Shown here in pieces: positions 8,256 to 57,949 of a stretch of 57,949 nucleotides of DNA. Every line of letters starts with the position of its first letter. Within the stretch, counting starts at the first letter, position 1. The notes below the pieces were generated by a model. That model made no database searches and was not told the DNA's origin. It saw nothing but the letters and a program-made list of their open reading frames with translations. Position numbers and translations under genes: made by a program. The stretch comes from a bacterium (GTDB taxonomy: Bacteria > Bacteroidota > Rhodothermia > Rhodothermales > UBA10348): positions 1-57,949 of the forward strand of contig JABMOI010000189.1 of NCBI GenBank assembly GCA_013204185.1, given 5' to 3'.

Positions 8256-8525
8256 ATGCTTCAAACCCTGACTTCCATACCCCGTAAACTGTTGGCTGGA
8301 CTCGTGAGAGGCTACCAACTTGTGATATCTCCTCATTTGGGTTCCTCCTGTCGTTATTCGCCTACGTGCTCTGAATACTCGATCCAAGCCTTGAAAAAGT
8401 ATGGGGCCATCAAAGGATTGATTTTAACAATCCATCGGGTTGTTCGATGTAATCCTTGGGGCGGTCATGGGCACGACCCTCCAATCTGGTTTTCAGAACG
8501 AAAAGAAGATCATGAACTGAAATGA
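8256..8525 (+). CDS. yidD: Membrane protein insertion efficiency factor YidD
   Basis: Hallmark [20 protein letters not shown]...[14 protein letters not shown] prefer the ATG at 8256 over the TTG at 8217, which overlaps the M23 stop codon. Confidence 0.85.
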
Positions 8526-9025
8526 GTTATCAAGAGCACACTCAAACAGCAAAACATCACGCGGCTCAAGTGGCGGTGATTACTTGTTCAGATACTCGAA
8601 CCGAAGACAACGACACGAGTGGCGCGTTTATCGTTCAGTCCGTACGGGACTCGGGCCATGAGATTGTATCTAGCGTCATCGTTAGAGAAGACCCAGGCTT
8701 GCTACTACATTCGCTAGATACAGCCGTTCAAGCCGGCGCCACCATCGTGTTAATCAATGGTGGAACGGGGTTGTCCAAGCGAGACAACACGTTCGAGGCG
8801 TTGTCTGGGGCGCTGGAGTCGCCCCTGCCGGGCTTTGGCGAGCTTTTCAGATACCTCTCCTACGAAGAGATTGGTGCCGCCTCAATGCTTTCCAGGGCGC
8901 AAGCTGGGCGCTACCGCAATGCGATGGTGTTTTCAATGCCCGGCTCAACGCCAGCCGTAAAGTTGGCTATGACGAAGCTCATTCTGCCACAAATCGGTCA
9001 TATCGTTTCCGAATTGACGAAATAG
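8522..9025 (+). CDS. moaB: MoaB/MogA family molybdenum cofactor biosynthesis protein
   Basis: Motifs [18 protein letters not shown] and MPGSTPA. The ATG overlaps the yidD stop (ATGA). Confidence 0.75.
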
Positions 9026-10362: not shown

Positions 10363-11142
10363 TTATTCAGCCGAAACAGGAGCAGTTTCCATTTCCCGTT
10401 TTTGCTTCAATATGAGTTTTGCTATATCGTCGGAGGCTGAGTCAGGTACCTGCGTTTCATCTCGGATAATCCGACCATCACGAAGTACCACAATACGTTT
10501 AGCGTAACGGGATACCTCGTCCTCATGTGTAACCAAAATGATCGTGATACCCTTCTTATTCAATTCCTGAAAAAGCTGCATCACCTCGACCGTTGTTCGG
10601 CTGTCCAAGTTACCGGTCGGTTCGTCTGCGAGGATGAGGCTCGGATTTGTTACAAGGGCTCGTGCAATGGCCACGCGTTGCTGCTGCCCTCCTGAAAGCT
10701 CGTTAGGATGATGGTCCGTGCGATCGCCCAGGCCAACCAGTTCAAGAGAATCAATGGCCGCCTGTCTGTGGTTTTTGATTTTGTGTGTACGGTCATACAG
10801 AAGCGGAAGCTCAACGTTTTCGACCGCCGAGGTACGAGCCAACAGGTTAAATCCCTGAAAGACAAAGCCAATTTTTTGGTTTCGAATATCTGCGAGTTCG
10901 TTTTTACCCAGCTTGTTGACCTCAATTCCGTCCAATAAGTAGGTTCCAGAACTTGGGTAGTCCAACCCACCGATGATGTTCATCATCGTGGATTTCCCAG
11001 ACCCAGACGTCCCCATAATTGCAACTAATTCACCTTGACGAATAGTCATGTCTACGCCCTGAAGTGCGTGGACTTCTGTTTTGCCCATGACATACGTCTT
11101 GCGTAGTCCAGTGACTTCGACAACCGGTTTGGTATCGCTCAT
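10363..11142 (-). CDS. ABC transporter ATP-binding protein (MacB/LolD-type)
   Basis: Walker [10 protein letters not shown], signature [15 protein letters not shown] and Walker [14 protein letters not shown] chose the ATG at 11142; the upstream start would overlap the adaptor gene. Confidence 0.92.
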
Positions 11143-11170
11143 TAATCTATGCTTGCCTAAAATGTTGGAA

Positions 11171-12508
11171 TCAGAAACCGCCGCCGCGACTAAAACCGCC
11201 GCGTCCACCGCCTGCACTCTCGCTCTGGAATGGATTTTTCATGCCGCTTCCTTCTTCGAGAAGCGTCACGCCGGAAATAATTTGCATCCCGGCTTCGAGA
11301 GTTTCTCCAGTGACCTCCGTTTGAGACCCATCCGTAATGCCTGTTTTCACGCGGGCCATTTGGATATCTCCTGCTGAATCCAGGTACCAAAGTGTTCCGG
11401 AATTGGAGCCTTGGCCACCAAACCCAGCAGGACGGCCTTGTCCGCCCCCTGGAGCGCCACCGGTTTGACCACCAGCTCTACCAGCCGCGGCGCCCTGTCC
11501 TGCAGCAGCTCCCGTTCCTCCAGCAGCAGCCGGCCCTCCAGCAGCTCCTTGTCCTGCGCCTGATGCTTCCATTTTAGCACGGATCTGAGCCATCATTTCT
11601 TCATTCGGACGAAACCGAAGAGCAGCATTTGGCACTTTGATTACATCAGATACTTGCTCAATCAAGAACTCGACGGTTGCCGTCATTCCTGGCAAAAGCC
11701 GTCCGTCCGAATTGTCTACGTCGACAACTGCCGTATAGGTTACTACGTTTTCTTGGACCGCAGATTGAAGTCTTACTTGACGGACACGTCCCAAAAAGGT
11801 CGAATTGTCGTATGCTTGAACCGTGAACCGGACTTGCTGTCCTTGTTTGATCAACCCGATGTCAGATTCATCCACCGAAGCAAGGATTTCCATCCGAGCC
11901 AAATCGTTGGCAATCAAAAACAACTGAGGCGTGTTAAGCGAAGCGGCAACGGTCTGGCCTTCGTCCACATTTCGTTCAACCACAACGCCGTCGATAGGAG
12001 AAACAATCGTGGCGTACGAGAGATTCCGTTGAGCTCGTTCTAAGCTGATGCGCGATGAAACGATGGTTGCCTTGGCCAAATCGAGATTGTATTTGGCTGA
12101 GTTCATTTCCACTTCTGTCGAAAACTGCTTTTCATACAAGCCGCGGATTCGATCATATTCTGTTTGGGAGAAGTCGAGCTGCGCCTGGTTTCTGTTCAGC
12201 GTCGCACGTGCTTCTTCGACTGAGCTGACCAACAACGTGGTATCAATTCGGGCGATGACCTGGCCTTTTCTGACCTTGTTGTTGAAATCAACATAGATCT
12301 TATTGACGATACCAGAAACTTGAGTACCTACTTGAACGGTGGTGACCGCGTTCAATTTTCCCGTCGATGCTACCACAGACTCTAGATTTCCGCTTTCAAG
12401 CGTTACGAACCGGTATTCAAGTCTGGCTTCAGCTTCTGCGCTATTGGTATACCAAATTGCGGCAACCACAACGACTAAAACCACCACCAAGGCTATTACT
12501 TTTTTCAT
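11171..12508 (-). CDS. Efflux periplasmic adaptor subunit (MacA/HlyD family) with a Gly/Ala-rich insert and RGG tail
   Basis: N-terminal signal anchor. Lipoyl/barrel-sandwich motifs (QVGTQVSGIV, IVSPIDGVVVERNVDEGQTV) and a coiled-coil hairpin. Low-complexity insert at 11396..11569. Confidence 0.88.
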   Translation of the reverse strand: MKKVIALVVVLVVVVAAIWYTNSAEAEARLEYRFVTLESGNLESVVASTGKLNAVTTVQVGTQVSGIVNKIYVDFNNKVRKGQVIARIDTTLLVSSVEEARATLNRNQAQLDFSQTEYDRIRGLYEKQFSTEVEMNSAKYNLDLAKATIVSSRISLERAQRNLSYATIVSPIDGVVVERNVDEGQTVAASLNTPQLFLIANDLARMEILASVDESDIGLIKQGQQVRFTVQAYDNSTFLGRVRQVRLQSAVQENVVTYTAVVDVDNSDGRLLPGMTATVEFLIEQVSDVIKVPNAALRFRPNEEMMAQIRAKMEASGAGQGAAGGPAAAGGTGAAAGQGAAAGRAGGQTGGAPGGGQGRPAGFGGQGSNSGTLWYLDSAGDIQMARVKTGITDGSQTEVTGETLEAGMQIISGVTLLEEGSGMKNPFQSESAGGGRGGFSRGGGF

Positions 12509-12587
12509 TTTTGCGTCTGGCGCTCAAAGAGCGACTATCGAGTTTCGTTTAAAGTTTTAAAAAGCGAACGTCAGGGACGTTTTGATT

Positions 12588-32813: not shown

Positions 32814-32948
32814 ATGGCCTTGCCTCGTTCAAATAGGTGATGACGTTCTAGTGAAACTGGATTCGAGCCGCGCTTACTAGTGCCACTTGTTTTGGTTAAA
32901 TTCCTATCATTGAGCGCCCTGTTATATACATACCTGCAACAGAAAACC

Positions 32949-33692
32949 ATGCCTTCTATTCATCCTAACGTTGTCGTCGATCCAACCTGCGTCCTTGGTC
33001 ATCATGTGGTGATTGAGGACAACGTTGAGATTGGTCAGGACTGCATAATTGGCCATTTTGTAGTCCTGAGATCAGGCACGAAGCTGGGAAATCATGTCCA
33101 AATTGGTGACCATTCCGTGCTAGGGCAGCAGCCCAAGCGGGCTGCCAACTCAGCCGTTACGAACGACACTAAGAAAACGGGGCCGCATGTTAGCGACCGT
33201 GTTCGAATTGGCTCCCACTCCATTATTTACGCGGGGTGTACCCTTAACGAGGATGTATTCGTAGCTGACCTTGCAACCATTCGTGAAGACGTACAGGTGG
33301 GACAAAAGACCATTGTGGGGCGCGGTGTTGCGATTGAAAACCAGTGCTCCATTGGCTCCTTTTGCAAACTGGAAACGAACGCCTACATCACGGCTTATTC
33401 GACCATCGAGGATAGAGTGTTCGTGGCACCTGGTGTGCTCACCAGCAATGACAACTTCATTGGTCGCACAGAAGAACGTTTTAAACACTTTAAAGGGGCC
33501 ATTCTACGGGAAGGGTCTCGCGTTGGCGTGGGCGCCGTCATTCTTCCAGGAGTCGAACTTCCTGCCGAGGCCGTGCTGGCTGCCGCGGCAGTCTTAACCA
33601 AAAAAGGCGAGCCTGGCATGGTTTATAAAGGTCTTCCAGCAAAGCCGGCAGGCCCTGTACCTACTGAACAACTCCTGTCAAATAATAAGTAA
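32949..33692 (+). CDS. Left-handed beta-helix (hexapeptide) sugar N-acetyltransferase-like protein
   Basis: ATG at 32949. Repeated [LIV]-G-x4 hexapeptides throughout (VVIEDNVEIGQDCIIGHFVVL...). Paired with a DegT-type aminotransferase 15 nt downstream. Confidence 0.75.
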   Translation: MPSIHPNVVVDPTCVLGHHVVIEDNVEIGQDCIIGHFVVLRSGTKLGNHVQIGDHSVLGQQPKRAANSAVTNDTKKTGPHVSDRVRIGSHSIIYAGCTLNEDVFVADLATIREDVQVGQKTIVGRGVAIENQCSIGSFCKLETNAYITAYSTIEDRVFVAPGVLTSNDNFIGRTEERFKHFKGAILREGSRVGVGAVILPGVELPAEAVLAAAAVLTKKGEPGMVYKGLPAKPAGPVPTEQLLSNNK

Positions 33693-33707
33693 GAGACTCC
33701 AAACGCC

Positions 33708-34838
33708 ATGAACATTCAAATGGTGGATTTGCATTCGCAATACCTCGATATCAAACATGAAATTGATACCGCGCTCCAAGAAGTGTTAAACACCACGGCC
33801 TTTATTCGGGGACCCGAAGTGAGCGCTTTTGAAGCGGAGCTGTCTCACTATTTGGATGGATCGAGTGTATTGGGCGTGGCCAACGGAACGGACGCGCTTC
33901 AGATTGCGCTCATGGCGTTACATATTGGCCCCGGCGACGAAGTGATCTCGCCCTCCTTCACGTTCGTAGCAACAGCAGAAGCGGTGGGCTTGCTGGGAGC
34001 AACGCCTGTATTCGCGGATGTGCTACCCGACACTTTCAACATGGACCCGGCCCAGCTTGAAGCGCTTATCACGCCTAGAACCAAAGCAATTGTACCGGTT
34101 CATTTGTTCGGTCAATGCGCCAATATGACTGAAATTAAGGCCATCGCGGATAAACACGGACTGCCTATTGTTGAGGATACGGCGCAAGCAATTGGATCTA
34201 CGTGGCAAGGTCAGGCTGCAGGGACAATAGGAGATATTGGGACTTTGTCCTTTTTCCCCTCAAAAAATCTGGGGTGTTATGGAGACGGCGGGGCTATTGT
34301 AAGCCGCCGTCCAGAGCTCTTTGAGCAATGCAGACTCATTTCCAATCATGGTTCTCGAAAAAAATATCACAACGAAGTGGTTGGGGTAAATTCCAGATTG
34401 GATTCCATGCAAGCAGCCATTCTGCGTGTCAAGCTAAGCCATTTGGATTCATACACGGAGGCCCGAGTTCTGGCAGCCAATCGGTATGACGCGCTTTTCA
34501 GCGATTCGAGCGATCTTGTAACGCCCTTCAGAGACCCGCGCGGTAGCCACGTATTTCATCAATACACGCTGCGAGTAAAGGGGAACGACCCAGAAAAACG
34601 GGACGCACTTCAAGCATACTTGGCGACTAAGGGGATTCCTTCTTTTGTTTATTATCCCGTTCCGCTTCACCTCTTGCCTATTTACAAAGACAATCCAGAC
34701 TCGTGCATTTGCGGCCCGCTTTCCAACACGTTGTGCGCGGCCAATGAGGTGCTATCCCTTCCCATTCATACGCACCTAACCCAATCCGAACAAGAGTTTA
34801 TTGCGGGGCACTGCAACGCCTTCTTTAGTAGCCTTTAG
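33708..34838 (+). CDS. DegT/DnrJ/EryC1/StrS family sugar aminotransferase
   Basis: 376 aa. FIRGPEVSAFEAELSHYL, PVHLFGQ, and SFFPSKNLGCYGDGGA containing the PLP lysine. Confidence 0.9.
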   Translation: MNIQMVDLHSQYLDIKHEIDTALQEVLNTTAFIRGPEVSAFEAELSHYLDGSSVLGVANGTDALQIALMALHIGPGDEVISPSFTFVATAEAVGLLGATPVFADVLPDTFNMDPAQLEALITPRTKAIVPVHLFGQCANMTEIKAIADKHGLPIVEDTAQAIGSTWQGQAAGTIGDIGTLSFFPSKNLGCYGDGGAIVSRRPELFEQCRLISNHGSRKKYHNEVVGVNSRLDSMQAAILRVKLSHLDSYTEARVLAANRYDALFSDSSDLVTPFRDPRGSHVFHQYTLRVKGNDPEKRDALQAYLATKGIPSFVYYPVPLHLLPIYKDNPDSCICGPLSNTLCAANEVLSLPIHTHLTQSEQEFIAGHCNAFFSSL

Positions 34839-34843
34839 ACCAT

Positions 34844-37828
34844 CTATTCAGAAGCCGTGGTCCGAAGCATCTCTTCGACTGTGGTGACACCCATTTTAAC
34901 TAGTTCACGAGCTGAATCTTGTAGCGTCAGCATGCCATCCTTGACGGCTTGCTCGCGGATTTGATCTTCGTCAATAGCTTCGGCGCTTTCGGCAATCATG
35001 GCTCTGATTTCACGGGTGAAATAGAGTGTTTCGCAGACCGCGCGGCGACCTTTATATCCGTTGCCATTACATTTCGGGCATTTAGAGCCGCGATTTGCTT
35101 TGTACACCGTGGTTTCTTCGATCTCTTTCTCTGTAAAACCGAGCGAACGCATCAAGACCAAGTCAGGATCAGTATCTTCAACTTTACAGCTAGAGCACAC
35201 TTCTCGGATAAGGCGCTGAGCAACGACCAGGTTGATAGCATAAGCAATCAAGAATGGCTCAACACCCATTTTGTACAGGCGGCTAACAGCAGCAGGTGCA
35301 TCGTTTGTATGAAGTGTTGAGAACGTAAGGTGACCCGTGTTCGCCAGTTTAATGGCAAGCTCAGCAGTGTGCTTGTCACGCATCTCCCCAACCATAACAA
35401 TGTCGGGGTCATGACGCAAAATAGCCCTTAGAGCACCTTCTAGGTCCAACTTGTGACTGAGCTTAATCTGCCGAACACCTTTAATGATGTACTCAACAGG
35501 ATCCTCAACCGTCAACACGTTTACTTCCGGCGTAACAACCTGGTAGAGAGCTGCAACAAGCGTCGTACTCTTACCTGAACCCGTTGGACCTGTCAGAATG
35601 ATCATCCCGTGAGGCTGGCGAATCGCTTTGTTGAACCGCTCCATGGCTACATCCAACATCCCTAATTTGGTGATGTCAGTAAGCACTTTACGGTCATCGA
35701 GAATACGAATAACGATACTCTCAGCTCTCATTTCCTGATTTGCAGAAGCAATCGGAAGAATGGAGACCCTGAATCGAATCAGAGCACCATCAATTTGGCG
35801 CTGAATAAACCCGTCCTGCGCAGCGTCGCGTTCAAAACGGTCTACGTTCGTTGAATTATCCTTAACAACAGCTAAGAATGCTTCCGGATGAACCTTGTCT
35901 TCCGTGTGCCATTTTTTCAGGCGACCGTCCGTACGAAGATGGATCTCAACCTGCTTATTAGCATTCGGATAAATATGAATGTCTGACGTTCCTTGTCGTA
36001 CCGCTTCAACAAGTGATGCTTCAAACAGGTTAATGAGCTTCGAGCGGCTAATTTCAGCTTCGAGTGCATCTTCGTCAAGCGACTCCTCACCCGAGTCGTA
36101 GGACATGCCCAAGTCAAAGGCTTGGGTTTCCTCTGAAATCCGTTCCATGTACTCATTTTTCCGTGGAAAAATGGTATCCAAAAGTCGCAGTATTTGCGAT
36201 TCAGAAGCATATCTGAGCTCAAAACGGCCCAAATCTAGCTCATGGACTAATTTATTTACTTCAGGACGAGTAGGGTCAGGCGTAATAAAGATGATGCGCC
36301 CTGTTCCTGTCTCAAAGTCGATCGAATGCTCAAATGGCACCAACAACATCTCGATCATCTCGTCGCGATGTTCGTCTGCCAAGGTCTCCATGGTGAGCCG
36401 GACAAAGTCGTGATCAGGTCGAAACTCGTCTACTTCTTCCAATTTAAAGGCGTAAACACGAGCTGCAGCTTTATAAACTGATTCCCTTTCGACGCCTTTT
36501 AAATCAGCGATAATGCGCCATAATGCAATTTTTCCGCCTTCAGCATCAAATAGCTTTAGGCCCTGGGCAGCTTGCTCATCCGTTACAATTCCATCTGCCA
36601 AGAGGGTCCGAACAACTCGGTCTTTGTGTAGCCTCTCGCCAAGTTCGCTGAGCTTAGCAGGTGTCAGGGGTGCTGCTGGCACTGCTTCCAATGCATCCTG
36701 AAGCGGGTCTGCGTGCTCGCTCAATTCAAAATCGATATGGGCGTTTTCAGAAGGCTCAATGCTATCAACACTGTATCCGCGCTTAACCAGAGAGATGGTT
36801 ACGTCGTGCAATGGCCCACTAACAATCGTTTTGGGGCTATAACGGCACTCTAGCGGATTAGGGCAAGAAAGGATAGCAGATTGAACTCTTGAATCGAGCG
36901 GGTCAGAAGACAATACAATGACAGTGTATCGTCTGTCGGACATAGATAGATCAAGACTAATCGGGACGAGCCCTGCTGAAACCAATCGGGCTAGGTCTTC
37001 GCCGCCAATCACTTTCAGGATGTCGTCTAAAAAGGCTTCTGTTGGAGATTCGTCCAAATGTGGCTGAAAAGCATAGCCTTGATGCTGAGCAACGGACGCT
37101 TCAATTTGAATGGTATCCGTATCCGGATGCATACTTAGAACTCGCCATAAGTCTAGTCCCTCTTGGCGATTTCTAATTGCATCAAAAACCTGAGACATGG
37201 TAACCACGCCCATCTGAAGCAAAGACAGAACGATTTCATCCTTGACTACACCAGATACAGGAGAATTAACCTCAGCGATTGGTGAACTTGGACTGACCGG
37301 AGTGAACGACTCTTCATCAAGGTCAGTCAGGGCATCTTCATCCTCGATTGGAGCAAATTCACTTTCCGTCTCTGCTGCAAAGTCCAAATAGGAGTTCAGG
37401 CTTTCTTCTAAAGCGTGATCTCGGTTAAGCTCTTCGATTGCGCTTTCTGAGGCCGTAAGCGAATCAGCTTCCTTTTCGTTCGAATTAGGTTCGGTTGGCG
37501 CATCTAAATCGAAGACAACGCCTTCACTTAGTGCTTCATCAAGCAATTCATCGTCAGATCCGGGCAGATCCGAAGCCAACGCCTGGGAGGATCCTACTCC
37601 GTAAATTTCATCAAGCGTGAATGTGTTTTTATCAGTCCCGTTGGTCACACCGCCTTCCAAACTGCGAAGTGCTTCGGTCATCTCGTCAAGAGACATCGCA
37701 CTCAGTTCAGAGATCGCCTGCTTAACTAAGCGGGCTTCTTCTTTTGATTCACGACCGCGCACTGGCTCTCGATCCTCGGATCGAGTGCCAGATTTTAGTC
37801 GCGATATGTCGAATAGTCGTTTGGACAT
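34844..37828 (-). CDS. PilB/GspE-family type IV filament assembly ATPase with about 400-aa N-terminal extension
   Basis: 994 aa. Walker A GPTGSGKST, Asp box VLTVEDPVEY, Walker B DPDIVMVGEMRD, His box TGHLTFSTLHTNDA, tetracysteine CSSC...CPKC. The ATG lies 19 nt after the PilC-like stop. Confidence 0.9.
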   Translation of the reverse strand: MSKRLFDISRLKSGTRSEDREPVRGRESKEEARLVKQAISELSAMSLDEMTEALRSLEGGVTNGTDKNTFTLDEIYGVGSSQALASDLPGSDDELLDEALSEGVVFDLDAPTEPNSNEKEADSLTASESAIEELNRDHALEESLNSYLDFAAETESEFAPIEDEDALTDLDEESFTPVSPSSPIAEVNSPVSGVVKDEIVLSLLQMGVVTMSQVFDAIRNRQEGLDLWRVLSMHPDTDTIQIEASVAQHQGYAFQPHLDESPTEAFLDDILKVIGGEDLARLVSAGLVPISLDLSMSDRRYTVIVLSSDPLDSRVQSAILSCPNPLECRYSPKTIVSGPLHDVTISLVKRGYSVDSIEPSENAHIDFELSEHADPLQDALEAVPAAPLTPAKLSELGERLHKDRVVRTLLADGIVTDEQAAQGLKLFDAEGGKIALWRIIADLKGVERESVYKAAARVYAFKLEEVDEFRPDHDFVRLTMETLADEHRDEMIEMLLVPFEHSIDFETGTGRIIFITPDPTRPEVNKLVHELDLGRFELRYASESQILRLLDTIFPRKNEYMERISEETQAFDLGMSYDSGEESLDEDALEAEISRSKLINLFEASLVEAVRQGTSDIHIYPNANKQVEIHLRTDGRLKKWHTEDKVHPEAFLAVVKDNSTNVDRFERDAAQDGFIQRQIDGALIRFRVSILPIASANQEMRAESIVIRILDDRKVLTDITKLGMLDVAMERFNKAIRQPHGMIILTGPTGSGKSTTLVAALYQVVTPEVNVLTVEDPVEYIIKGVRQIKLSHKLDLEGALRAILRHDPDIVMVGEMRDKHTAELAIKLANTGHLTFSTLHTNDAPAAVSRLYKMGVEPFLIAYAINLVVAQRLIREVCSSCKVEDTDPDLVLMRSLGFTEKEIEETTVYKANRGSKCPKCNGNGYKGRRAVCETLYFTREIRAMIAESAEAIDEDQIREQAVKDGMLTLQDSARELVKMGVTTVEEMLRTTASE

Positions 37829-37847: not shown

Positions 37848-39200
37848 TTACTTCATAAAATCGGTCGCAGATGGAGAAACCATAGCGAGTTCGGAAGAAA
37901 GAATGGTTAAACCCATAATTGCGAGCGTAATTATCAAGGCCACAACCGTCTGAATGACTTCAATAACGGATTTTAGCTTTAGCGACGTTTCGTTTTCGTA
38001 GTAGTCTGCCATTTGGCGGGCACTGTTTCGCACATTTCCTGTTTCAGAACCACTTCTAAATCGCGCTAACGCCATCGAAGTGAATGCACCCGATGCTTCC
38101 ATAGCTTTGACTAGGTCGGCGCCTTGAGCCACCATCATGGGGATGGTGACGGTTTTTACTCGGTGCTCGATGTACCGATTTCCACTGGCTTCCGCAGCAA
38201 TCTTAATCACGGAAATGTTTTCTCCACTTCCAGAATAGAGCACGGCAAACACACGGCAGAAAATCTCAATATTTAGCTTGTGTAGAAGTCCACCAATAAT
38301 GGGAAGTCTAATCATGAATCGGTGTGTGAGAAAAACGCCTCTATTTGACCTCAAAAAGGCCATCACACCGCCAATAATTGAACCCGAGACCAGCAAAACA
38401 TAAAACCAGTTGTGATCCATCCACTTCGAAAAATCGAGCGTGCTTTGCGTCATAGGTGGAAGTTCCAAACCGAAATTTTCAAACAAACCAGCTGTTTGAG
38501 GGAATATGTACCAAATGTAGAAGACAAAGGCAGCCGACAACACCAACAAGGTGATAACCGGCGTAATCATAGCGCTTTTAATACTTTTCTTGAACTCGTT
38601 TTGGCGCTCTAAGAACCTGGCCGTTGCTTCGTATATCTCGGACATATTCCCTGTCTGAGAAGCAATACCTAGCATGTAGGCCGTAAACTTGCCCAGCATA
38701 TGTTGCTGCTTCATAAAGGCTTGTTGAGCTTCCATACCGCCTTTTAGGTCGGCGTTCAGATCTCGGATAACCTGTTTCAAGCTTTTGGAAGACACATCGT
38801 TAACGAGCAAATTCAGTACTTCGTCAAACGGCAGCTTTTCCTTGAGAAGGTTTGCAGAAAGCCGTACAAACATGATTAGGTCAGTCTGAGGCGGTTTTCT
38901 CTGAATATCAAATAGTACCTTCTGAATCTTGATGACTTCAAGACCCATTTTTGATAAAGCTGTCCGTAGTTCGTCTTCTGAAAATGCCTTTTGGCCGCCT
39001 TGGATTACCTTCCCGTTAAAGTGGCGAACTTTGTAGAGGTACGTGGAGCGCTGTTCAATACTTTCGGTACGGAAAGAATGCCGTTCCGCCAAGTCGCCAA
39101 CTCTTTTTTTGGCGGCCTGAGCGCTAGGAGCAAACACAGTCCCCTGGACGGGCTGTCCGACCTGGCTAATTCCGTTAAATCTAAATTCTTTAACTGCCAT
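37848..39200 (-). CDS. PilC/GspF-family (T2SS-F) platform protein
   Basis: 450 aa. Two T2SSF-like halves, each with cytoplasmic helices followed by TM segments. The N-terminus resembles the PilC N-terminal motif and appears twice. Confidence 0.88.
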   Translation of the reverse strand: MAVKEFRFNGISQVGQPVQGTVFAPSAQAAKKRVGDLAERHSFRTESIEQRSTYLYKVRHFNGKVIQGGQKAFSEDELRTALSKMGLEVIKIQKVLFDIQRKPPQTDLIMFVRLSANLLKEKLPFDEVLNLLVNDVSSKSLKQVIRDLNADLKGGMEAQQAFMKQQHMLGKFTAYMLGIASQTGNMSEIYEATARFLERQNEFKKSIKSAMITPVITLLVLSAAFVFYIWYIFPQTAGLFENFGLELPPMTQSTLDFSKWMDHNWFYVLLVSGSIIGGVMAFLRSNRGVFLTHRFMIRLPIIGGLLHKLNIEIFCRVFAVLYSGSGENISVIKIAAEASGNRYIEHRVKTVTIPMMVAQGADLVKAMEASGAFTSMALARFRSGSETGNVRNSARQMADYYENETSLKLKSVIEVIQTVVALIITLAIMGLTILSSELAMVSPSATDFMK

Positions 39201-39264: not shown

Positions 39265-39675
39265 CTATTCAACAACGATTTCGCTATTGAAACTGATAAT
39301 CGTTGAATCGATCGTGTAGTTCGTCAAATAGGTCCTGGCGCCGATTTCTGGATAGCGACGGCTATTCCCACTAATCACTAGATTCGTGTTTGTAGCGCTC
39401 GTAATTTCATATTTGGCGTGGTGCGTTTCCGCATCCATAAACAGCTTTCTCATGCCATTCGTCTCTAGTCCAATGTATTTAGCATTGCCGCCGCTGTAAG
39501 GATCCAGCTTCGTTTTCCAAAAAACAGCTGAAGTCGCAATTTCCAAATTCCGACTTACGATGTTTTCTGATTCTGCCTGCCTCATTTTGTTTTGGAAGGC
39601 AACTATGCCTGCGACCACCGCACTTGCGGCAATGATCACACCCATAACAAGCAGAAGTAATTGTTGCTGTCCCAT
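39265..39675 (-). CDS. Pilin-like protein B (non-canonical, starts MGQQQLLLLV)
   Basis: 136 aa. N-terminal hydrophobic helix, an amphipathic helix and a beta-rich tail. Paralogue of 39869..40315. An in-frame stop lies 11 codons upstream with no alternative start. Confidence 0.55.
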   Translation of the reverse strand: MGQQQLLLLVMGVIIAASAVVAGIVAFQNKMRQAESENIVSRNLEIATSAVFWKTKLDPYSGGNAKYIGLETNGMRKLFMDAETHHAKYEITSATNTNLVISGNSRRYPEIGARTYLTNYTIDSTIISFNSEIVVE

Positions 39676-39772
39676 CGCATTTTGAGGTCTAGTGTATCTG
39701 AGGAAAGTTTAGTCCTCCAGATAATCTGAGTATCGGCTGTGATGAAGCTTCCTTAACAAGATGAGACCGAAT

Positions 39773-39813
39773 AAAAAAAGCTCGGGGAGGCTGCGTTTGC
39801 AGCCTCCCCGAGC
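39773..39813 (-). terminator. Strong rho-independent terminator after pilin-like gene A
   Basis: Perfect 15-bp stem gctcggggaggctgc (39780..39794) with gcagcctccccgagc (39799..39813), a 4-nt loop, and T7 on the minus strand (39779..39773). It lies 56 nt past the stop at 39869. Confidence 0.85.
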
Positions 39814-39868
39814 TTAAATCCTACTTCAGTCTGTGACGTTAGGTCACATAAGAAGTATTCCTATTCGT

Positions 39869-40315
39869 CTACTGATTGATCTCAGTTGTGATATCACCAG
39901 GAGTCGTACCGGCAACGGTCAGAACTACTGTGTTCATCACGGTCGTTCCGTCTGTTCCATAGGACGTCGCGGTGATTTCAAGATCGGTGCCTGAGGCGTC
40001 CAAAACGAAAACACCGTTTAGGTTTTCGTAATCGTCGTCGCCAGCTGTGGCTGCAGTCAGAGCGGTGTCACCAACTGTGTAGCCAATCTGACCGAAGTTC
40101 AAACCAGTCCAATCTGCTGCACTAGCGCCGCCACCAAATGCACCTGGTTTTAGTTTCCATGCTTGAGCGTCGGAAGCGACACGGATTGCATCGTTAACCA
40201 GAGCGTCTGCATTAGCTTTTTTCTGGTTTTCTGAAAATGCCTGGATACCAACTACGACGGCCAAGCCGACGATAACGATACCTAGTACGAGAAGAAGTAA
40301 TTGCTGTTGACCCAT
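39869..40315 (-). CDS. Pilin-like protein A (candidate major subunit, starts MGQQQLLLLV)
   Basis: 148 aa. Hydrophobic N-terminal helix, an amphipathic stretch (ANADALVNDAIRVASDAQAWKLKP) and a Gly/Thr/Asp-rich Cys-free C-terminus. Strong SD. An in-frame stop lies 8 codons upstream. Confidence 0.6.
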   Translation of the reverse strand: MGQQQLLLLVLGIVIVGLAVVVGIQAFSENQKKANADALVNDAIRVASDAQAWKLKPGAFGGGASAADWTGLNFGQIGYTVGDTALTAATAGDDDYENLNGVFVLDASGTDLEITATSYGTDGTTVMNTVVLTVAGTTPGDITTEINQ

Positions 40316-40322
40316 TTGGGAA

Positions 40323-40329
40323 CCTCCTT
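40323..40329 (-). promoter_or_regulatory. Shine-Dalgarno AAGGAGG for pilin-like gene A
   Basis: The minus strand reads AAGGAGG, then 7 nt, then ATG (40315). Confidence 0.6.
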
Positions 40330-40562
40330 GGTTGTTTGGTTAGGTCTGTATTGTTTAGTCGAACGCACTTCATTCGGAATTTCGTTCTGAATGCGGTATC
40401 GTCGGCGCGAGATCAGTCTTAAGAAAATGCAGTGTGAAGCTTTCGTGAAGCACCGGGCGCGGGTTGCCTTTTCTAATCAATATCCACGCAACACCTGCGA
40501 AATCGCGGCGTACACTTATATGTAGCGTGTTTTATTTGATTAAATAGGAAAAGGTTGGTGTC

Positions 40563-40880
40563 ATGGTAGACAAAGAAAAAGTCCGCGTCACGATTGAAGA
40601 AATGAAAGTAAAGGGCGGCCACCTAGTAGATAAGGTGAAAGAAGTCATTGAAGAGGGTAACGCGCGTCGTCTCTTAATTAAGAAAGATCAACGTACCCTA
40701 TTGGAGATTCCGTTGTCAGTTGGAGTAGGTGGCGCCACCGCTGCTGTATTCCTCCTCCCTACGTTAGCAGCCGTTGGCGCATTGGCAGCTCTAGTCTCAG
40801 ATGTTACGATTGTAATTGAGCGAGAAGAAGCGCATGTGACCGATGTCGAAGTCGAAGAAGTGACTTCCGATAAAAAATGA
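40563..40880 (+). CDS. DUF4342-like protein
   Basis: 105 aa. GGHLVDKVKEVIEEGNARRLLIKKDQRTLLEIPLSVGVGGATAAVFLLPTLAAVGALAAL matches my recollection of DUF4342. Confidence 0.65.
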   Translation: MVDKEKVRVTIEEMKVKGGHLVDKVKEVIEEGNARRLLIKKDQRTLLEIPLSVGVGGATAAVFLLPTLAAVGALAALVSDVTIVIEREEAHVTDVEVEEVTSDKK

Positions 40881-46591: not shown

Positions 46592-47941
46592 CTACTCAAC
46601 GCGCTGAATGTTAGATTCACGTTTGATTTTGTATTGAGCACCAAAATCAGTGCCGTAAGAATACTCGGCTGAAGCGTTTAACCGGCTTTCGCTCCGGTAT
46701 GCTCTACCGTTTCCACCTTCATAGCCGTAGTAAGCGTCGTAATCGTCACTTGCTGCGCTAATTGCTTCCACGCCGTAGTCCCATAGCCATCCTTCGTCTT
46801 CAGGAAGAAGGGAAATAGGAGCAAATCCGTTGTAGTCGCGAGGGTCAAAAAGGCGGCTTCGAGAAACGCTTCTTACTGACTCTGAACGCAAGTTCAGTAC
46901 GCCAACCCGGTACCCATCGGATGCCCGATATTTAGCTAGCGCGTAGTCGTCGTAAAATTTAGTAGAGATCATTTCAAACCCGGCTCTACGATCTCCCACT
47001 AGAAATACGTCACGATCGAATGTGATCTGCCCATCGCGAAAGACAGTAGCTTCAATCTGGGATAAGTTTCTCGGGATACGATCCACTTTGCCAAGATATC
47101 TGTTGCCTTCATACAGGGCGACTTCCTCTATCTCTATGTCTAGCACAGCGTAATCGTCTGTGGCATAACGAACCTTGTGACGGTACACGGTTTCCATTTC
47201 GATGCGTGAAGATCGATTTCGTGATCCCCAATTAGATTCCACGTACACCACCTGGCGATACCGATACCTTGGAGACCAATGTCTTTCGTATCGAAGTACC
47301 CAAGGCCAAGATACATGGATTGAGATCCTAGATTGGGGACGATAAGCCCGTTTAGATCCTACATTGAGGACAAACCGCGGAGCATATCTAACAGTGCGAT
47401 TGCCATTTTTAGCACGAACAGGAATCCGCCTTGGCACGACAACGCTAGATCTGTTGCCACGAATTACGTCCTGGTTTCCTTTTCCGCCCACGCGACCTGC
47501 GTCAGTTGCACGCCGAGCGCTTGATCCGTTTGTAGATCGAGCACCAGAACCTGTGCTACGAGAGCCAGCCTGTTTGGCGTCGCGATCTACTCTGGCTCCA
47601 CCACGGCTACCAGATGCATTCTGAGAACGGGTTGAATTGGAACCCCTAGTGGCGGATTGTTCGGCATTACTTTTACGGGCGTCAGATTTCCGTGCGTCCG
47701 ACTTCCTAGCGTCAGATTTCCGGGCGTCAGCTTTTCGGGCATCTGACTTTCCAGCTGAAGTAGCTTTTCCCGCCGAACGGGCTTTTCCAGCAGAACCAGC
47801 TTTCCCGCGGTTCACCGTAACCTTCCCTTTGTCTGTTCGGGTCCGTTGCGCCATCGAATCGTGGGGCAGCGCGACAAGAGTGAAAACCGCCATCAAGATG
47901 GCGACTGAAAGTTTTCGAAGTGCAGTAGAATATTTTTTCAT
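46592..47941 (-). CDS. Secreted protein with a very basic tandem-repeat N-terminal region; unknown family
   Basis: 449 aa. Signal peptide ...LPHDSMAQ. About 180 residues rich in R/K/S/G/A, including SAGKxx x3 and ARK(S/A)D x5. The C-terminal half is Tyr/Arg/Asp-rich and unrecognised. Confidence 0.7.
   Translation of the reverse strand: MKKYSTALRKLSVAILMAVFTLVALPHDSMAQRTRTDKGKVTVNRGKAGSAGKARSAGKATSAGKSDARKADARKSDARKSDARKSDARKSNAEQSATRGSNSTRSQNASGSRGGARVDRDAKQAGSRSTGSGARSTNGSSARRATDAGRVGGKGNQDVIRGNRSSVVVPRRIPVRAKNGNRTVRYAPRFVLNVGSKRAYRPQSRISIHVSWPWVLRYERHWSPRYRYRQVVYVESNWGSRNRSSRIEMETVYRHKVRYATDDYAVLDIEIEEVALYEGNRYLGKVDRIPRNLSQIEATVFRDGQITFDRDVFLVGDRRAGFEMISTKFYDDYALAKYRASDGYRVGVLNLRSESVRSVSRSRLFDPRDYNGFAPISLLPEDEGWLWDYGVEAISAASDDYDAYYGYEGGNGRAYRSESRLNASAEYSYGTDFGAQYKIKRESNIQRVE
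47679..47807. repeat. In-frame coding tandem repeats: 15 bp x5 followed by 18 bp x3
   Basis: 15-bp units start at 47679, 47694, 47709, 47724 and 47739 (gcgtcagatttccgt-like). 18-bp units start at 47754, 47772 and 47790. They encode ARKSD-type pentapeptides and SAGKAx hexapeptides on the minus strand. Confidence 0.9.
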
Positions 47942-52966: not shown

Positions 52967-54184
52967 GTGTTTTATTTCTTGAATCGCCGTCTCGACATAA
53001 ACTACGCACGCGTGCGCTCTACATTTTGGGCTTTTCTATTGTGCGCGGCCCTGCTTTTTCTGTTCGATTCAACAGATGCAAAAGCCCAGTTACCGCCAAC
53101 CGTGTCCGGTTCGACCGAGGTCTCGATCCTCACTATTTACCCCGGCGAACCCACCTATTCGGCTTGGGGCCACTCCGCGCTTCGCATCGTAGACCCGGTC
53201 ACGGGACTCGACGCAGCCTTTAACTATGGCACATTCGACATCACGGCTCCCTATTTCATCCCACGTTTTGCCTATGGGGATATGCTCTACCAGCTTTCGG
53301 CAGACCCTACGTCGGCCTTGTTTCGAGGGGCAAGCTATCAAAAGCGCTCAGTTGTCGAGCAGGTTCTTTCGCTCGATTCAACTCAAGTGGCGGGTATTTA
53401 TGCGCTGCTGCTAGAGAACCTCAAGCCTGAAAACAGGCTCTACCAATACGATTTTGTATTCGACAATTGCTCTACGCGCCTATTGGACCTTCTTTTTTCG
53501 GTTGATGGCATCATACTTCCCGCAACGGACCCTTACGACTCCACGATTCGGGAGATGCTCGATGAGTTCGTTCACGACAGGGCCATGCTTGACCTAGGCA
53601 TTGACTTGGTGATTGGAAGCCGCCTCGACGTGGCGCCTACGCTACGGGAACGGACGTTTCTTCCGACCTACTTGATGGATGTGCTGGATGAATCGACTAC
53701 GCCCGCGGGAGCGGCCATTGTAACAGAAAAGCGAATGGTTCTGGAGTACGATCCGCTCCACGTAGACCGAGCGCTGCCGTGGACCTTCTGGGTGAACTTT
53801 GCGTGGGTTGCCATTGTGCTAGCTTGGTGGCGCGGCGCTTCACGCCTGCCAGCCTGGTTTGATCGCTGGCTCTTGGGAATTGTGGGGTTTGTGGGCCTAT
53901 TTCTGCTGGGAATGTGGTTTTTAACGCTCCACCACGTCACAGCCGCAAACTGGAATATTGCTTGGGCCCTTCCTTCGCATCTGGTGTTCAGCCTTTTCTG
54001 GAAACGACTCAGCTTTAAACGGGCCTATTTCCGGTGGGCCGGTGTTTGGACCACAGGGATAGCCATTTTCTCTGTTTTCCAAGCGCAGCACATTCCAGAG
54101 GCCATGTGGCCGGTTGTGGTTTTGCTTGTGCTGAGGCTCCTGGCGCTTTCTATTCCAGAAGCGCATAGCCCCGCTTCGAATTAA
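52967..54184 (+). CDS. DUF4105 (Lnb N-terminal domain)-like membrane protein
   Basis: GTG start at 52967; an alternative GTG lies at 53012. LTIYPGEPTYSAWGHSALRIVDP...FNYGTFD signature and a C-terminal TM bundle. Confidence 0.7.
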   Translation: MFYFLNRRLDINYARVRSTFWAFLLCAALLFLFDSTDAKAQLPPTVSGSTEVSILTIYPGEPTYSAWGHSALRIVDPVTGLDAAFNYGTFDITAPYFIPRFAYGDMLYQLSADPTSALFRGASYQKRSVVEQVLSLDSTQVAGIYALLLENLKPENRLYQYDFVFDNCSTRLLDLLFSVDGIILPATDPYDSTIREMLDEFVHDRAMLDLGIDLVIGSRLDVAPTLRERTFLPTYLMDVLDESTTPAGAAIVTEKRMVLEYDPLHVDRALPWTFWVNFAWVAIVLAWWRGASRLPAWFDRWLLGIVGFVGLFLLGMWFLTLHHVTAANWNIAWALPSHLVFSLFWKRLSFKRAYFRWAGVWTTGIAIFSVFQAQHIPEAMWPVVVLLVLRLLALSIPEAHSPASN

Positions 54185-55059
54185 GCCCGCGTGCGTTTAG
54201 CTGGACCGCTTTCTTGTTCGGGGCTCTGGTGAGCGTCGTCAAGGTCTAATTTCTCGGGCACCCGCTCTTGCTCCACAGACCGATCAAAGTATTCCAAGTC
54301 CAAGCCGGCCGTTTCCGAAGCATCCTTTTCGTGATTCGCGACAATCTCTTCGTGTAGCGCCCCAGGCGCCCTCAGGCTGCCTTTCGAAACGAGATTCAGC
54401 GCAATGGAGCCGATCGCGTCCATTTGGTCGGCTCGGTCGTAGCGCCACTGGGATAGTTGAAGGCCCGTAAAGCCAATCCCTGCGATGCCTGCAACGGCAA
54501 AAAATATGGCAGGAAATAAGATGCTGAAATCCACTCCCGAAGCAAGGGCAGAACTTATAAAGATGAAAATGCCCGCCATAATCCAGCTGATACTTGCCCA
54601 CAGAAATCCTTTTGCACTTCCCTTCTCAGTCCCCATTCTGAGCCTGTGGCCATGAGGGGTTGGCTCGACGAGGATATGAAGGTTTCCGTTCGACCATTCT
54701 CTAAGCTTCCCTTCCCGTGTAATTTTCCCACGAGCACCAAAAGCCTGCCTAATTTCTACAACAAGTTTGTCCCAACTGTCGTCCGAAAGAGGTGCTTTGA
54801 GGTCGATAATGCGGTGAACTGAGGTCTGCAAACCCAAAAAACGCTTTTCGGGTGGAGCCTCTACCGTGTGCTCTAGACGAGCGGCGGCGTCTGAGATAAA
54901 CTCGGGCGAAATACCTGCCTCTCTGGCTATCAAATGCAGATCCTCGAGCGTTAACCCATCCTCCAAGGCCGATCGTTCTTTAATCCGTTCTTGTTCTTCT
55001 GATGCTTTTTTGAAAATATCAGCGATTTCTTTCTGACTATATCGACGATCAGAATCCAT
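54181..55059 (-). CDS. Hypothetical membrane protein
   Basis: 292 aa with a helical charged N-terminus, two adjacent TM helices (WASISWIMAGIFIFISSALA, LFPAIFFAVAGIAGIGFTGL) and an acidic tail. No family recognised. Confidence 0.5.
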   Translation of the reverse strand: MDSDRRYSQKEIADIFKKASEEQERIKERSALEDGLTLEDLHLIAREAGISPEFISDAAARLEHTVEAPPEKRFLGLQTSVHRIIDLKAPLSDDSWDKLVVEIRQAFGARGKITREGKLREWSNGNLHILVEPTPHGHRLRMGTEKGSAKGFLWASISWIMAGIFIFISSALASGVDFSILFPAIFFAVAGIAGIGFTGLQLSQWRYDRADQMDAIGSIALNLVSKGSLRAPGALHEEIVANHEKDASETAGLDLEYFDRSVEQERVPEKLDLDDAHQSPEQESGPAKRTRA

Positions 55060-55929: not shown

Positions 55930-57949
55930 CTACCTGTTAAGTAGGACCCTGTATCCAAACATGAATCGGTTGTAGTCAAAGAAGTCCAGCGTGCTGAACT
56001 CTCCGAAAAACGTAGTCCCCGTTTTGGCTTCGTATTCGATACCTACAAACAGATTCAGCTTCATCTCCAGACCGGATAGAAACTTGTCGCTTACCAACCC
56101 AGCCCCAACACCGGTGTAGAAGTCGGTGTTTGCGCCTAGTTCATACGGGTACCAAGCGAAGTTGGCTAGTGCGCTTAGGCCTACTGCTTCCCCTATAACT
56201 AGTGATGCTTCTGGCATGAAACGTACTTTTTGATCTGGGAAGCGGTAATCCGCGCGCGCTCCGAGAATCACGGCATCGATTCCGTCCTTGAGTCCGAGGC
56301 CAATTTGAGGCAGTACGCTGTGTAGGTGACGATCTCTCCATAACGCGACCAACCCAGTAGCACCAGTGTTCGAAGAGTCTGTTGTCGCTGTATGGACAAG
56401 GACTTCTTCTACTTCAGGCTCTCTGGCTGAGTCCTGTGCTCTATTGACTTCATCTGCAATGCGTCTGTCTAACCGGTCCTCCATCTGACGCAAGCTTTTT
56501 TCAAGCTGTTCGGCTGTTACACCGCCTTGATTGCCAGTTGCCTTGGGTTGTTCGTCCAATACCTGTTTGACAATCTCTTTGATCGCTTCCGGTGAAATAG
56601 TAGTAGCAACAGGCACACCCATGGAGTCTGTAACTACTTTGAATCCACCCGGCTTTCCATCCACAACCTGGAATGAGGAATCGATACCGACAGGTTGAAC
56701 AATGCTAGAATCAACGCGGATGCGGCTATCTGTTGCGCCAAAACGGATGTAGATTTCACCCACTTCCGGTACAGGAATGGTCATGGTGCGGTCAGAAATG
56801 TTGCTTTTCGCGCCTTTTACCACCACAGAATCCACTTCGACGACTTTTTCCATGTTTTTCGGCGTGGTCTGAAGCGAATCGAGGCGTGACTGCATTTTCT
56901 TGAGCTCTGCTTCAAGCGCAATGACGCGGGCTTCTTCCGGCGTTACGGTTTTAACTTCCGTGACCACATCACCATTTTCATCCACCGTTACTTCGACTTC
57001 CATCTCTTCGGCAGGCATCGATCTGATTTCACGCTCTGTAACCGTCGAAGAAGACTTGCGAGGTTTGCGCCCAATACTGAAATTGATACCGCCAGTGTAC
57101 ATCAGGCTTCCAAACACGCTGCTAGGGCCGTTTACGTCGGCAACATCTTCGGTGCTCATGAAGAGGCCACGCACACCACCTTGTATTTTAATTCCTGAGG
57201 TAATGGGGACTTCAAGGCCTGCTCCACCCGTTGCGAAGTATCGACTTTCAGCAACAACGCCATCTGCGCCCGTAAATAGGTCACTTTTCTCGCCATTGAG
57301 ATACCCGGCGCCTACAATGAGATAGGGCGTGACTCCGCCATCACCAAAACGTAGGTCGAGTTCACCACCATACATTTTAAGCTTGCCGAACCCTTTTGGG
57401 ACGCCGCCATCGAATGCGGTTGTTTGCTCTGTATCTACCCAGTAGAAACCACGGATACCGATATAAGGACCTAGGTCAAAACCGGCGTTAACACCCGCAA
57501 CGGCTGTAGACTTAGGAAATCCTAAGGCTTCGTTGAAATCGATTTGGCCGTAGAAAGGCTCGATAGCCAAGCGGAAACCGCCACCGCTTAACTGGCTCAG
57601 CATGGCCCGGTCGGTTTCGGTAAGGCCATTGCCCGAGCGTCCACCTAAAAAGATCTTGAGTGAGGTAGAAAGTACTGGGTTGTTTACGGTAACCAAATTG
57701 AAGCTTTCGCGGGTCAATCCAACCGCCGTAAGGTCGCTTTCAGATAAGAACGTAGAAGCTGGATTGTAGCGGTATGAAAGGTTCTCGGCGCCCACCGAAA
57801 GAGTGTATCTCTCTGCTACGCTGAAGGTTAGCCCAACGCCGAGGTTCGAATAGATTTGCTCGCTCGACTGAACGCCTTCGCCCTTGAACTCCTGAATTCC
57901 GGTCCCTGCCGTGATAAACGGGATGAAACGACCGCTCCCAATGTTGATT
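55930..57949 (-). CDS. Multi-module outer-membrane beta-barrel protein, partial: 5' end beyond window edge
   Basis: The track ORF starts at a GTG (57795), but the same frame stays open to the window end (...NIGSGRFIPFITAGTGIQEF...SVAERYTLSVGAENLSY). Gly/aromatic beta-strand modules flank a charged central linker, and the C-terminus is FMFGYRVLLNR. Confidence 0.7.
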   Translation of the reverse strand, partial: INIGSGRFIPFITAGTGIQEFKGEGVQSSEQIYSNLGVGLTFSVAERYTLSVGAENLSYRYNPASTFLSESDLTAVGLTRESFNLVTVNNPVLSTSLKIFLGGRSGNGLTETDRAMLSQLSGGGFRLAIEPFYGQIDFNEALGFPKSTAVAGVNAGFDLGPYIGIRGFYWVDTEQTTAFDGGVPKGFGKLKMYGGELDLRFGDGGVTPYLIVGAGYLNGEKSDLFTGADGVVAESRYFATGGAGLEVPITSGIKIQGGVRGLFMSTEDVADVNGPSSVFGSLMYTGGINFSIGRKPRKSSSTVTEREIRSMPAEEMEVEVTVDENGDVVTEVKTVTPEEARVIALEAELKKMQSRLDSLQTTPKNMEKVVEVDSVVVKGAKSNISDRTMTIPVPEVGEIYIRFGATDSRIRVDSSIVQPVGIDSSFQVVDGKPGGFKVVTDSMGVPVATTISPEAIKEIVKQVLDEQPKATGNQGGVTAEQLEKSLRQMEDRLDRRIADEVNRAQDSAREPEVEEVLVHTATTDSSNTGATGLVALWRDRHLHSVLPQIGLGLKDGIDAVILGARADYRFPDQKVRFMPEASLVIGEAVGLSALANFAWYPYELGANTDFYTGVGAGLVSDKFLSGLEMKLNLFVGIEYEAKTGTTFFGEFSTLDFFDYNRFMFGYRVLLNR

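Follow-up and report, generated by a model that had tools for sequence, protein, structure and literature searches.

A family of pilin-like proteins beginning MGQQQ in Rhodothermales and related bacteria: candidate type IV pilins made without a leader peptide

Can a type IV pilin be built without a leader peptide, and without the peptidase that removes it? In the established account of type IV filaments, every subunit carries a class III leader, and assembly requires that a prepilin peptidase first remove this leader (PMC10191384). The question is raised by two neighboring genes in a stretch of 57,949 nucleotides from a bacterium of the order Rhodothermales (GenBank assembly GCA_013204185.1, contig JABMOI010000189.1); this whole stretch is termed the window. 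Gene A (39869..40315, minus strand) encodes a protein of 148 residues and gene B (39265..39675, minus strand) a paralog of 136 residues, as read from the open reading frame (ORF) list and modeled with AlphaFold2. Both proteins begin with MGQQQLLLLV and resemble pilins that lack a leader. A preliminary description of the window, based on its letters, had proposed exactly this, and its interpretation is supported as a whole, with a favorable outcome for most of the checks it suggested that were run. Judged from sequence, it is rather probable that A and B are type IVa (T4a)-related pilins made essentially in mature form and independently of prepilin peptidase. A is the probable major pilin, and B is probably a second, less conserved or minor subunit.

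The two proteins share more than their first residues. At the DNA level, A and B agree at 24 of their first 30 nucleotides, and the six mismatches are all silent changes at third codon positions, which indicates selection on the peptide and not on the DNA. A hydrophobic run follows in both proteins at residues 6-27 (L6-F27, 22 residues, with Q25 as the sole polar residue), and it is predicted to be helical at a local confidence (pLDDT) above 90. W53, K56, and G62 are common to A and B and invariant in the family, and neither protein contains a cysteine. The similarity of the starts in protein and DNA, the hydrophobic helix of about 20 residues, the shared WK-K motif, and the absence of cysteine had all been pointed out before, and each was confirmed.

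No room exists for a longer leader. In-frame stops lie 8 codons upstream of A (40340..40342) and 11 codons upstream of B (39709..39711), and no ATG, GTG, or TTG stands between stop and start in either gene. A Shine-Dalgarno sequence, AAGGAGG (40323..40329, minus strand, read from the sequence), is placed 7 nucleotides 5' of the gene A ATG. The 5' region of gene A recurs in close relatives, where the in-frame upstream read is PNNQGGSQ. The survey of start codons covered 130 family ORFs from 81 sources, namely 80 related loci and the window. The codon aligned with Met1 was a start codon in every case (ATG in 124, TTG in four, GTG in two). The upstream stop lies at a median distance of 7 codons, and at 3 codons or fewer in 37 ORFs; an alternative start before that stop is impossible in 116 of the 130. 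The earlier statement that A and B cannot have a longer leader is thus borne out and extends to most of the family. The conserved pilin block begins at the initiator methionine. As to a class III signal peptide, only Met-Gly stands ahead of the remaining block, and no basic or hydrophilic leader is present.

Database entries with a longer N-terminus are few (P0253, P0254, P0271, and P0344) and mostly represent a TTG start, giving Leu at position 1, that was read through by the gene caller. P0253 and P0254 were considered as relics of a true leader with a G/F or G/L site (the slash marks the cleavage), and this was rejected because the Leu or Val at position 1 corresponds to TTG or GTG starts in the loci. 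P0344 (MPNPSSSGFGQQQ), in which Phe replaces Met1, is the one longer entry without such an explanation. In this single case (MPNPSSSGFGQQQLMLL), the Phe follows Gly and resembles the canonical G/F prepilin site.

The family is large and almost entirely unnamed. Searches returned 1,858 homologs of A, all named "hypothetical", and 186 of B, which represents a conserved partner family adjoining A. A profile search gave 1,560 representatives at 50% identity, and a profile built from the most divergent members reached at least 4,863 clusters. Carriers belong to the Rhodothermales, Balneolales, KSB1, Kryptoniota, Calditrichota, and Ignavibacteriota, and the cultured ones include Rhodocaloribacter litoris and Gracilimonas tropica. 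By sequence, A and B gave no meaningful match in Pfam, NCBIfam, or the Protein Data Bank (PDB). The IMG database labels a handful of members "Tfp pilus assembly protein PilE", so that a COG model appears to have picked up the pilin likeness. A supplement on the type IV filament superfamily contains no entry for Rhodothermus, Salinibacter, Gracilimonas, or Balneola, and literature searches for leaderless pilins, peptidase-independent type IV filaments, and the MGQQQ motif found nothing relevant.

The N-terminus hardly varies across the family. Of 382 unique sequences, 379 have M1, 381 G2, 376 Q3, 379 Q4, 382 Q5, and 381 L6. The near-invariance of the MGQQQ start together with the start codon is far beyond chance. 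The only other residue at position 2 is Ala. Q3 is the least conserved of the first five residues and tolerates T, N, H, F, and S. Gln5 is the sole residue invariant in all 382, so the family does not carry the Glu5 that is frequent, though not universal, in pilins. The absence of that glutamate, claimed earlier for A and B, therefore holds when counting from Met1, with Glu found only in a Balneola variant. In this variant, a second gene begins MANKELLL and combines Ala2 with Glu5 (8520-8885 in locus L049; also in L062, L063, and L067).

Downstream of the start, A shows a sharp division. Across 31 genomes, its first 63 residues have a mean pairwise identity of 73%, compared with 33% in the head. 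Gene B is less conserved overall (43% and 32%), the first ten residues excepted. The constant N-terminus and variable head of A form the classic major-pilin pattern. Extra pilin copies occur in related loci, both in tandem and as orphans. Tandem A-type duplicates with identical N-termini and different heads were seen in five loci (L006, L029, L037, L042, and L043), of which L037 and L042 hold unusually long members of 183-226 residues; this suggests subunit diversification.

The arrangement of transcription signals also fits a major subunit. A strong intrinsic terminator or attenuator separates A from B (39778..39815, minus strand), with a 17-bp stem containing 12 G-C pairs and followed by seven T. 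The surrounding 101-nucleotide segment (39770-39870) folds at -51.9 kcal/mol (z = -8.7), and none of 200 shuffled sequences was as stable. Such a terminator, with read-through into the operon, is typical of a highly expressed major-subunit gene. Hence, A is probably transcribed far above B, PilC, and PilB. No riboswitch or known RNA was found upstream of A, and the sole Rfam match was the terminator hairpin on the opposite strand.

Structural models place both proteins close to pilins in overall shape. The AlphaFold2 models were built with deep family alignments. For A, the model contains a helix of 53 residues (3-55) and four strands (pLDDT 93.3; predicted template modeling score, pTM, 0.81), and for B, the same helix span and four strands (pLDDT 89.1; pTM 0.75). 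In both, the N-terminal helix is followed by a loop with short helices and then by four consecutive strands. L6-F27 falls within the 20-25 residues of the hydrophobic half of a pilin helix, alpha1N. The lollipop layout suggested in the preliminary description, an extended N-terminal helix with a beta-sheet head, thus appears in the models of both A and B, with weak likeness by Foldseek. The comparison with pilin structures proposed at that time yielded no significant match to the PDB for either model. The two best matches of B are type IV pilins, PilA4 of Thermus (6xxd_A) and PilV of Neisseria (5v23), at E-values of about 0.08; a P. aeruginosa pilin stands lower down among the non-significant matches of A. 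This weakness may reflect a difficulty of Foldseek with lollipop-shaped proteins.

Profile comparison points in the same direction at low significance. When aligned by hhalign, alpha1 of the family pairs with that of E. coli GspG (E = 0.0055) and PpdD (E = 0.0093), both weak; overall, the runs gave E-values of 0.005-0.016 and probabilities below 7%. Within alpha1, GIQAFSEN is paired with GIPAYQNY and AQAWKLK with LDMYKLD. An attempt to read the processing site from this register was dropped, since the pairing shifts by 2-3 residues along the hydrophobic segment, and the register of Met1 against the canonical +1 therefore cannot be fixed. The Pfam family N_methyl (PF07963) did not match A or B at E-values up to 1.

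The genomic context supplies the motor. Directly downstream of A and B, on the same strand, lie a PilC-like and then a PilB-like gene. The PilC/GspF-like platform protein (37848..39200, minus strand, 450 residues) matches Pfam T2SSF in two stretches (1.4e-28) and the NCBIfam models for GspF (8.6e-47) and PilC (1.4e-41), both far below the equivalog cut-offs. The PilB/GspE-like assembly ATPase (34844..37828, minus strand, 994 residues) has a long N-terminal extension and matches Pfam T2SSE over residues 596-989 (3.1e-98). Its NCBIfam scores for PilB (4.4e-117) and GspE (5.6e-117) are equal at about 392 bits and below cut-off. The extension of about 590 residues (1-595) is acidic, partly of low complexity, and shows a faint MshEN match. 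PilB length itself varies, from 724 to about 1,200 residues in Rhodothermales versus about 595 in Balneolales and Ignavibacteriota. The order pilin(s)-PilC-PilB recurs in about 41 of the 59 loci with enough downstream sequence, and the remainder are orphan copies. The linkage of the MGQQQ motif to T2SSE and T2SSF genes, proposed earlier as a check, is therefore tight, and the association with PilB and PilC is one of gene linkage.

Beyond the four-gene operon, the window contains no secretin, PilT, PilM/N/O, or peptidase gene, nor anything else pilus-related. Three additional genes extend the operon in R. litoris, Balneolales, KSB1, and Kryptoniota. One encodes an ATPase whose scores of 325 and 323 bits exceed the NCBIfam PilT/PilU cut-off of 319, another a protein of 510-640 residues with weak PilM-like and PilN-like matches, and the third a protein of about 295 residues with a weak PilO match. 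Two Ignavibacteriota contigs (L085 and L086) have the full operon, with two tandem MGQQQ genes, followed by T2SSF, T2SSE, a PilT-like ATPase, proteins of 515 and 295 residues, and a Secretin gene. The machine of a type IVa pilus (T4aP) comprises the paralogs PilB and PilT, PilC, PilM, PilN, PilO, and the secretin PilQ (PMC6668835). Such parts are found across the family, with weak PilM/N/O matches, and the window itself has PilB and PilC only. From its gene content, the Ignavibacteriota operon probably encodes a T4a-like, envelope-spanning, retractile pilus machine. Beyond the Secretin gene, these two contigs also encode a response regulator and a hybrid histidine kinase. One Balneola operon carries, between PilB and PilT, a gene for a cyclic-nucleotide-binding protein (12102-12599 in L049).

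The component that would process a leader is missing from all of these loci. The G-x-G-D-x-K motif and a phmmer search with E. coli GspO revealed no homolog of the A24 family or of GspO in the window or in 83 related loci (1.03 Mb). A canonical prepilin of the G/F-T-L-I-E type was likewise absent from the window and the related loci. Hence, PilD and canonical minor pilins, both expected of T4aP, do not occur within the loci. A further observation comes from Melioribacter roseus, whose genome paper reported both pilA and pilD as not found (PMC3534657). Melioribacteraceae, the family of M. roseus, carry MGQQQ genes. An unrecognized MGQQQ family would explain the missing pilA, and a leaderless pilin predicts the missing pilD.

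On which side of the membrane the head lies was judged from flanking charges and cysteine parity rather than by a predictor of transmembrane topology. Among 370 members, the head domain contains no cysteine in 230, two in 112, four in 13, and an odd number (one or three) in 15. The cysteine pair often encloses a loop of 18-25 residues at the very C-terminal end, which resembles the D-region of T4a pilins. These even counts suggest disulfides, which argues for a head outside the cytoplasm. A Wzy_C gene (O-antigen ligase or O-oligosaccharyltransferase-like) that passes the Pfam threshold lies directly 3' of a pilin gene, on the same strand, in eight loci from two phyla (L084 at 11005-12543, L021, L032, L043, L050, L064, L070, and L077); none is present in the window. 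Two of these genes were tested against NCBIfam: for L070, the best match was the pilin O-oligosaccharyltransferase TfpM, at 57.5 bits against a 600-bit cut-off, and L084 matched no family. Enzymes of this family, such as PglL and TfpO, are understood to act on the periplasmic side. Together, the adjoining Wzy_C genes and the cysteine parity argue for an exported head. The preliminary description had doubted the textbook orientation on the ground that no basic residue precedes the helix. Its premise stands, as no N-terminal positive charge is present, and the concern is weakened by the cysteine parity and by the neighboring Wzy_C/TfpM-like genes.

From these elements, a mechanism can be outlined. 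The 22-residue hydrophobic segment would insert the pilin into the inner membrane, with the MGQQQ tail on the cytoplasmic face and the head in the periplasm. At most, a deformylase and a Met aminopeptidase would act on it, with no dedicated prepilin peptidase or methylase; since Gly2 is permissive, removal of Met by the aminopeptidase would be allowed. The PilB/PilC motor would extract the pilin from the membrane and polymerize it. In canonical pili, Glu5 forms a salt bridge with the N-terminus (PMC10191384). With Met1 counted as +1, the uncharged Gln5, or Glu5 in the MANKELLL variant, would take the place of the canonical Glu5, and a neutral N-terminus or Gln hydrogen bonding could replace the salt bridge. 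Recognition by the assembly machine and packing within the filament core may fall to the invariant first ten residues. The variable head would form the exposed surface, sometimes disulfide-bonded and, in some lineages, probably glycosylated. The processing options listed earlier (none, Met removal only, or cleavage after Gly2) all stand, and the balance has moved towards the absence of a prepilin-peptidase step. A broader version would apply to a branch of the Fibrobacterota-Chlorobiota-Bacteroidota (FCB) group that includes Rhodothermota, Balneolota, Ignavibacteriota, Calditrichota, KSB1, and Kryptoniota. There, retractile pili would be made from subunits synthesized mature, with no leader, peptidase, or N-methylase and with Gln5 replacing the salt bridge; our confidence in this wider claim is evenly balanced.

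Several points weigh against a leaderless pilin. The filament, its surface location, and the native N-terminus are all predictions from sequence. Likeness to known pilins by Foldseek and hhalign is not significant by itself, and neither PilT, PilM/N/O, nor a secretin is linked to the genes in the window. No N-terminal positive charge would enforce an N-in topology, and the difference in flanking charges, counted from the sequence, is marginal for A and neutral for B. In Melioribacteraceae, the MGQQQ gene was found in a metagenome-assembled genome, and M. roseus itself is a presumed carrier. Moreover, mannose-sensitive hemagglutinin (MSH) systems use a prepilin peptidase encoded elsewhere and unlinked to their locus (PMC6668835). 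The restriction of position 2 to Gly or Ala is narrower than the specificity of Met aminopeptidase and coincides with the -1 rule of prepilin peptidases, whose substrates have leaders that "invariably end with Gly or Ala" (PMC10191384).

The last two points lead to a rival in which A and B are true prepilins with the shortest class III leader, Met-Gly, cut after Gly2 by an unlinked or novel peptidase to leave Gln, possibly as pyroglutamate, at +1. As "MG" formally ends in Gly, this reading has been kept, and we hold it to be unlikely but worth serious attention. It accommodates the pattern at position 2 (Gly in 381 of 382, otherwise Ala), the unlinked peptidase of MSH loci, and the longer N-terminus of P0344 (MPNPSSSGFGQQQ) with Phe for Met1. 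It fits poorly with the fact that Q3, which would become residue +1, varies most among the first five residues, while Q5 is invariant. The leader would be two residues long, shorter than in any substrate known to us; archaeal PibD is not known to accept fewer than 3 residues. P0253 and P0254, with Leu at position 1, reflect TTG or GTG starts, the 1.03 Mb of related loci lack an A24 gene, and the M. roseus genome yielded no pilD (PMC3534657). A further possibility, namely that the true starts lie upstream and a normal leader was missed in annotation, could appeal to the few longer database entries (P0253, P0254, P0271, and P0344). It is hardly tenable, given the stops 8 and 11 codons upstream with no start between, the 37 of 130 ORFs with 3 codons or fewer before the stop, the 116 of 130 without any other start, and the correctly spaced Shine-Dalgarno sequence before the gene A ATG.

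It could also be argued that the proteins are not filament subunits at all. They might be bitopic inner-membrane accessory proteins of the PilB/PilC machine, resembling PilN, PilO, or GspM, or short periplasmic pseudopilins that stay below the cell surface, as in type II secretion systems. The four-gene operon of the window, lacking both secretin and PilT, would suit such roles, as would the absence of a leader, of Glu5, and of significant sequence or Foldseek matches to pilins. Nevertheless, related operons already encode PilM/N-like and PilO-like proteins, a PilT-family ATPase, and a secretin. The constant N-terminus and hypervariable head, the variation in copy number, the private terminator, and the neighbors resembling O-oligosaccharyltransferases are traits of a major pilin. 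In addition, the predicted alpha1 with a meander sheet is unlike PilN and PilO, which are built of ferredoxin-like repeats. We therefore consider an accessory or pseudopilin role improbable, and prefer the reading of A and B as leaderless, T4a-related pilins.

Comparison with established systems shows how such pilins would relate to known filaments. The family lacks three hallmarks of pilins (a hydrophilic leader, Glu5, and an N_methyl match) and shows those of structure and genomic context. With T4a pilins, it shares an alpha1 of about 53 residues with a hydrophobic N-terminal half and, as predicted for A and B, a four-stranded antiparallel head. A constant N-terminus, a variable head, and, in many members, a C-terminal disulfide loop complete the likeness, and, close to where the hydrophobic segment ends, a helix-breaking Gly stands in the position that Pro22 has in T4a pilins. 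In contrast, A and B have no hydrophilic or basic leader, no G/F-T-L-I-E site, and Gln instead of Glu at position 5. The machinery shows the same mixture. The operon with PilC, a PilB carrying the tetra-Cys motif, a PilT-family ATPase, PilM/N/O-like proteins, and a secretin is T4a-like, whereas no prepilin peptidase is linked and PilB and PilC score far below their NCBIfam equivalog cut-offs.

Other systems share fewer features. GspG is the best, though weak, profile match, with about 54 aligned alpha1 columns (ASDAQAWKLK against ENALDMYKLD), and it too is co-encoded with GspE- and GspF-type proteins. It differs in its 9-residue leader (E. coli K-12), its Glu5, and its lack of a PilT partner; related MGQQQ operons include a PilT-family ATPase. 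The EppA-dependent pilins of the archaeon Methanococcus maripaludis have leaders of several residues, a dedicated EppA peptidase, and Gln at +1, possibly as pyroglutamate. A and B resemble them in that Gln follows a small residue that could be cleaved, Glu5 is absent, and the Gln could cyclize. Here, however, the motor is the bacterial PilB/PilC, the leader would be two residues, Q3 is not invariant, and no archaeal pilin family in Pfam matched A or B, so that membership in the EppA type is not indicated. The Tad/Flp subunits, of about 50-80 residues with a G/xxxxEY site and TadA/TadB/TadC partners, are likewise distinct from A and B, which have 136-148 residues and a globular head; the ATPase of the window scores 392 bits on the PilB model versus 52 on a TadA-family model. 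The loci of MSH pili, which are also type IV filaments, likewise encode no peptidase of their own (PMC6668835). Their pilins retain the canonical leader and use the peptidase of another system in the genome, unlike A and B, which have no leader.

The Wzy_C gene that follows the pilin in eight related loci recalls pilA-tfpO of P. aeruginosa group I, TfpM of Acinetobacter, and PglL of Neisseria. The differences are that the window has no such gene and that the score on TfpM falls far short of the family cut-off; glycosylation in the MGQQQ family is thus putative. Separately, genes for a DegT-family aminotransferase and a hexapeptide acetyltransferase (32880-34838, plus strand) converge on the PilB end of the operon in the window. 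In other settings, these two enzymes act together in making di-N-acetylated sugars. Their involvement in pilin glycosylation was considered, and they were not counted as part of the system, because the arrangement is conserved only in seven close relatives.

The remaining neighbors contribute little to the question. A small DUF4342 gene (40563-40880, plus strand) is divergent from A and accompanies the pilin gene in 36 loci of Rhodothermales as well as in R. litoris. Its conservation was not taken as evidence of function, as DnaJ, GrpE, DUF2400, and flavin reductase genes are syntenic too, reflecting synteny at the level of the order. Three further ORFs of the window, all on the minus strand, have no Pfam match: 46592-47941 (449 residues), 54181-55059 (292 residues), and 55930-57795 (621 residues).

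The MGQQQ family illustrates a blind spot of annotation, since it matches no Pfam or NCBIfam model and nearly all of its members are called "hypothetical". Motif-based finders that seek G/F-x-x-x-E or G/M-x-x-x-E presumably miss it as well. Its cultured carriers, such as Rhodocaloribacter litoris and Gracilimonas tropica, make the prediction testable. If true, leaderless pilins would account for the pilA and pilD genes that seem to be missing from genomes with pilB, pilC, pilT, and pilQ. They would also mark the first case in nature of a type IV filament system that does without a prepilin peptidase. As such, the family would offer a natural experiment on why other pilins need a leader, N-methylation, and the Glu5 salt bridge, whose candidate roles include membrane orientation, the blocking of premature assembly, and charge neutralization in the filament core.

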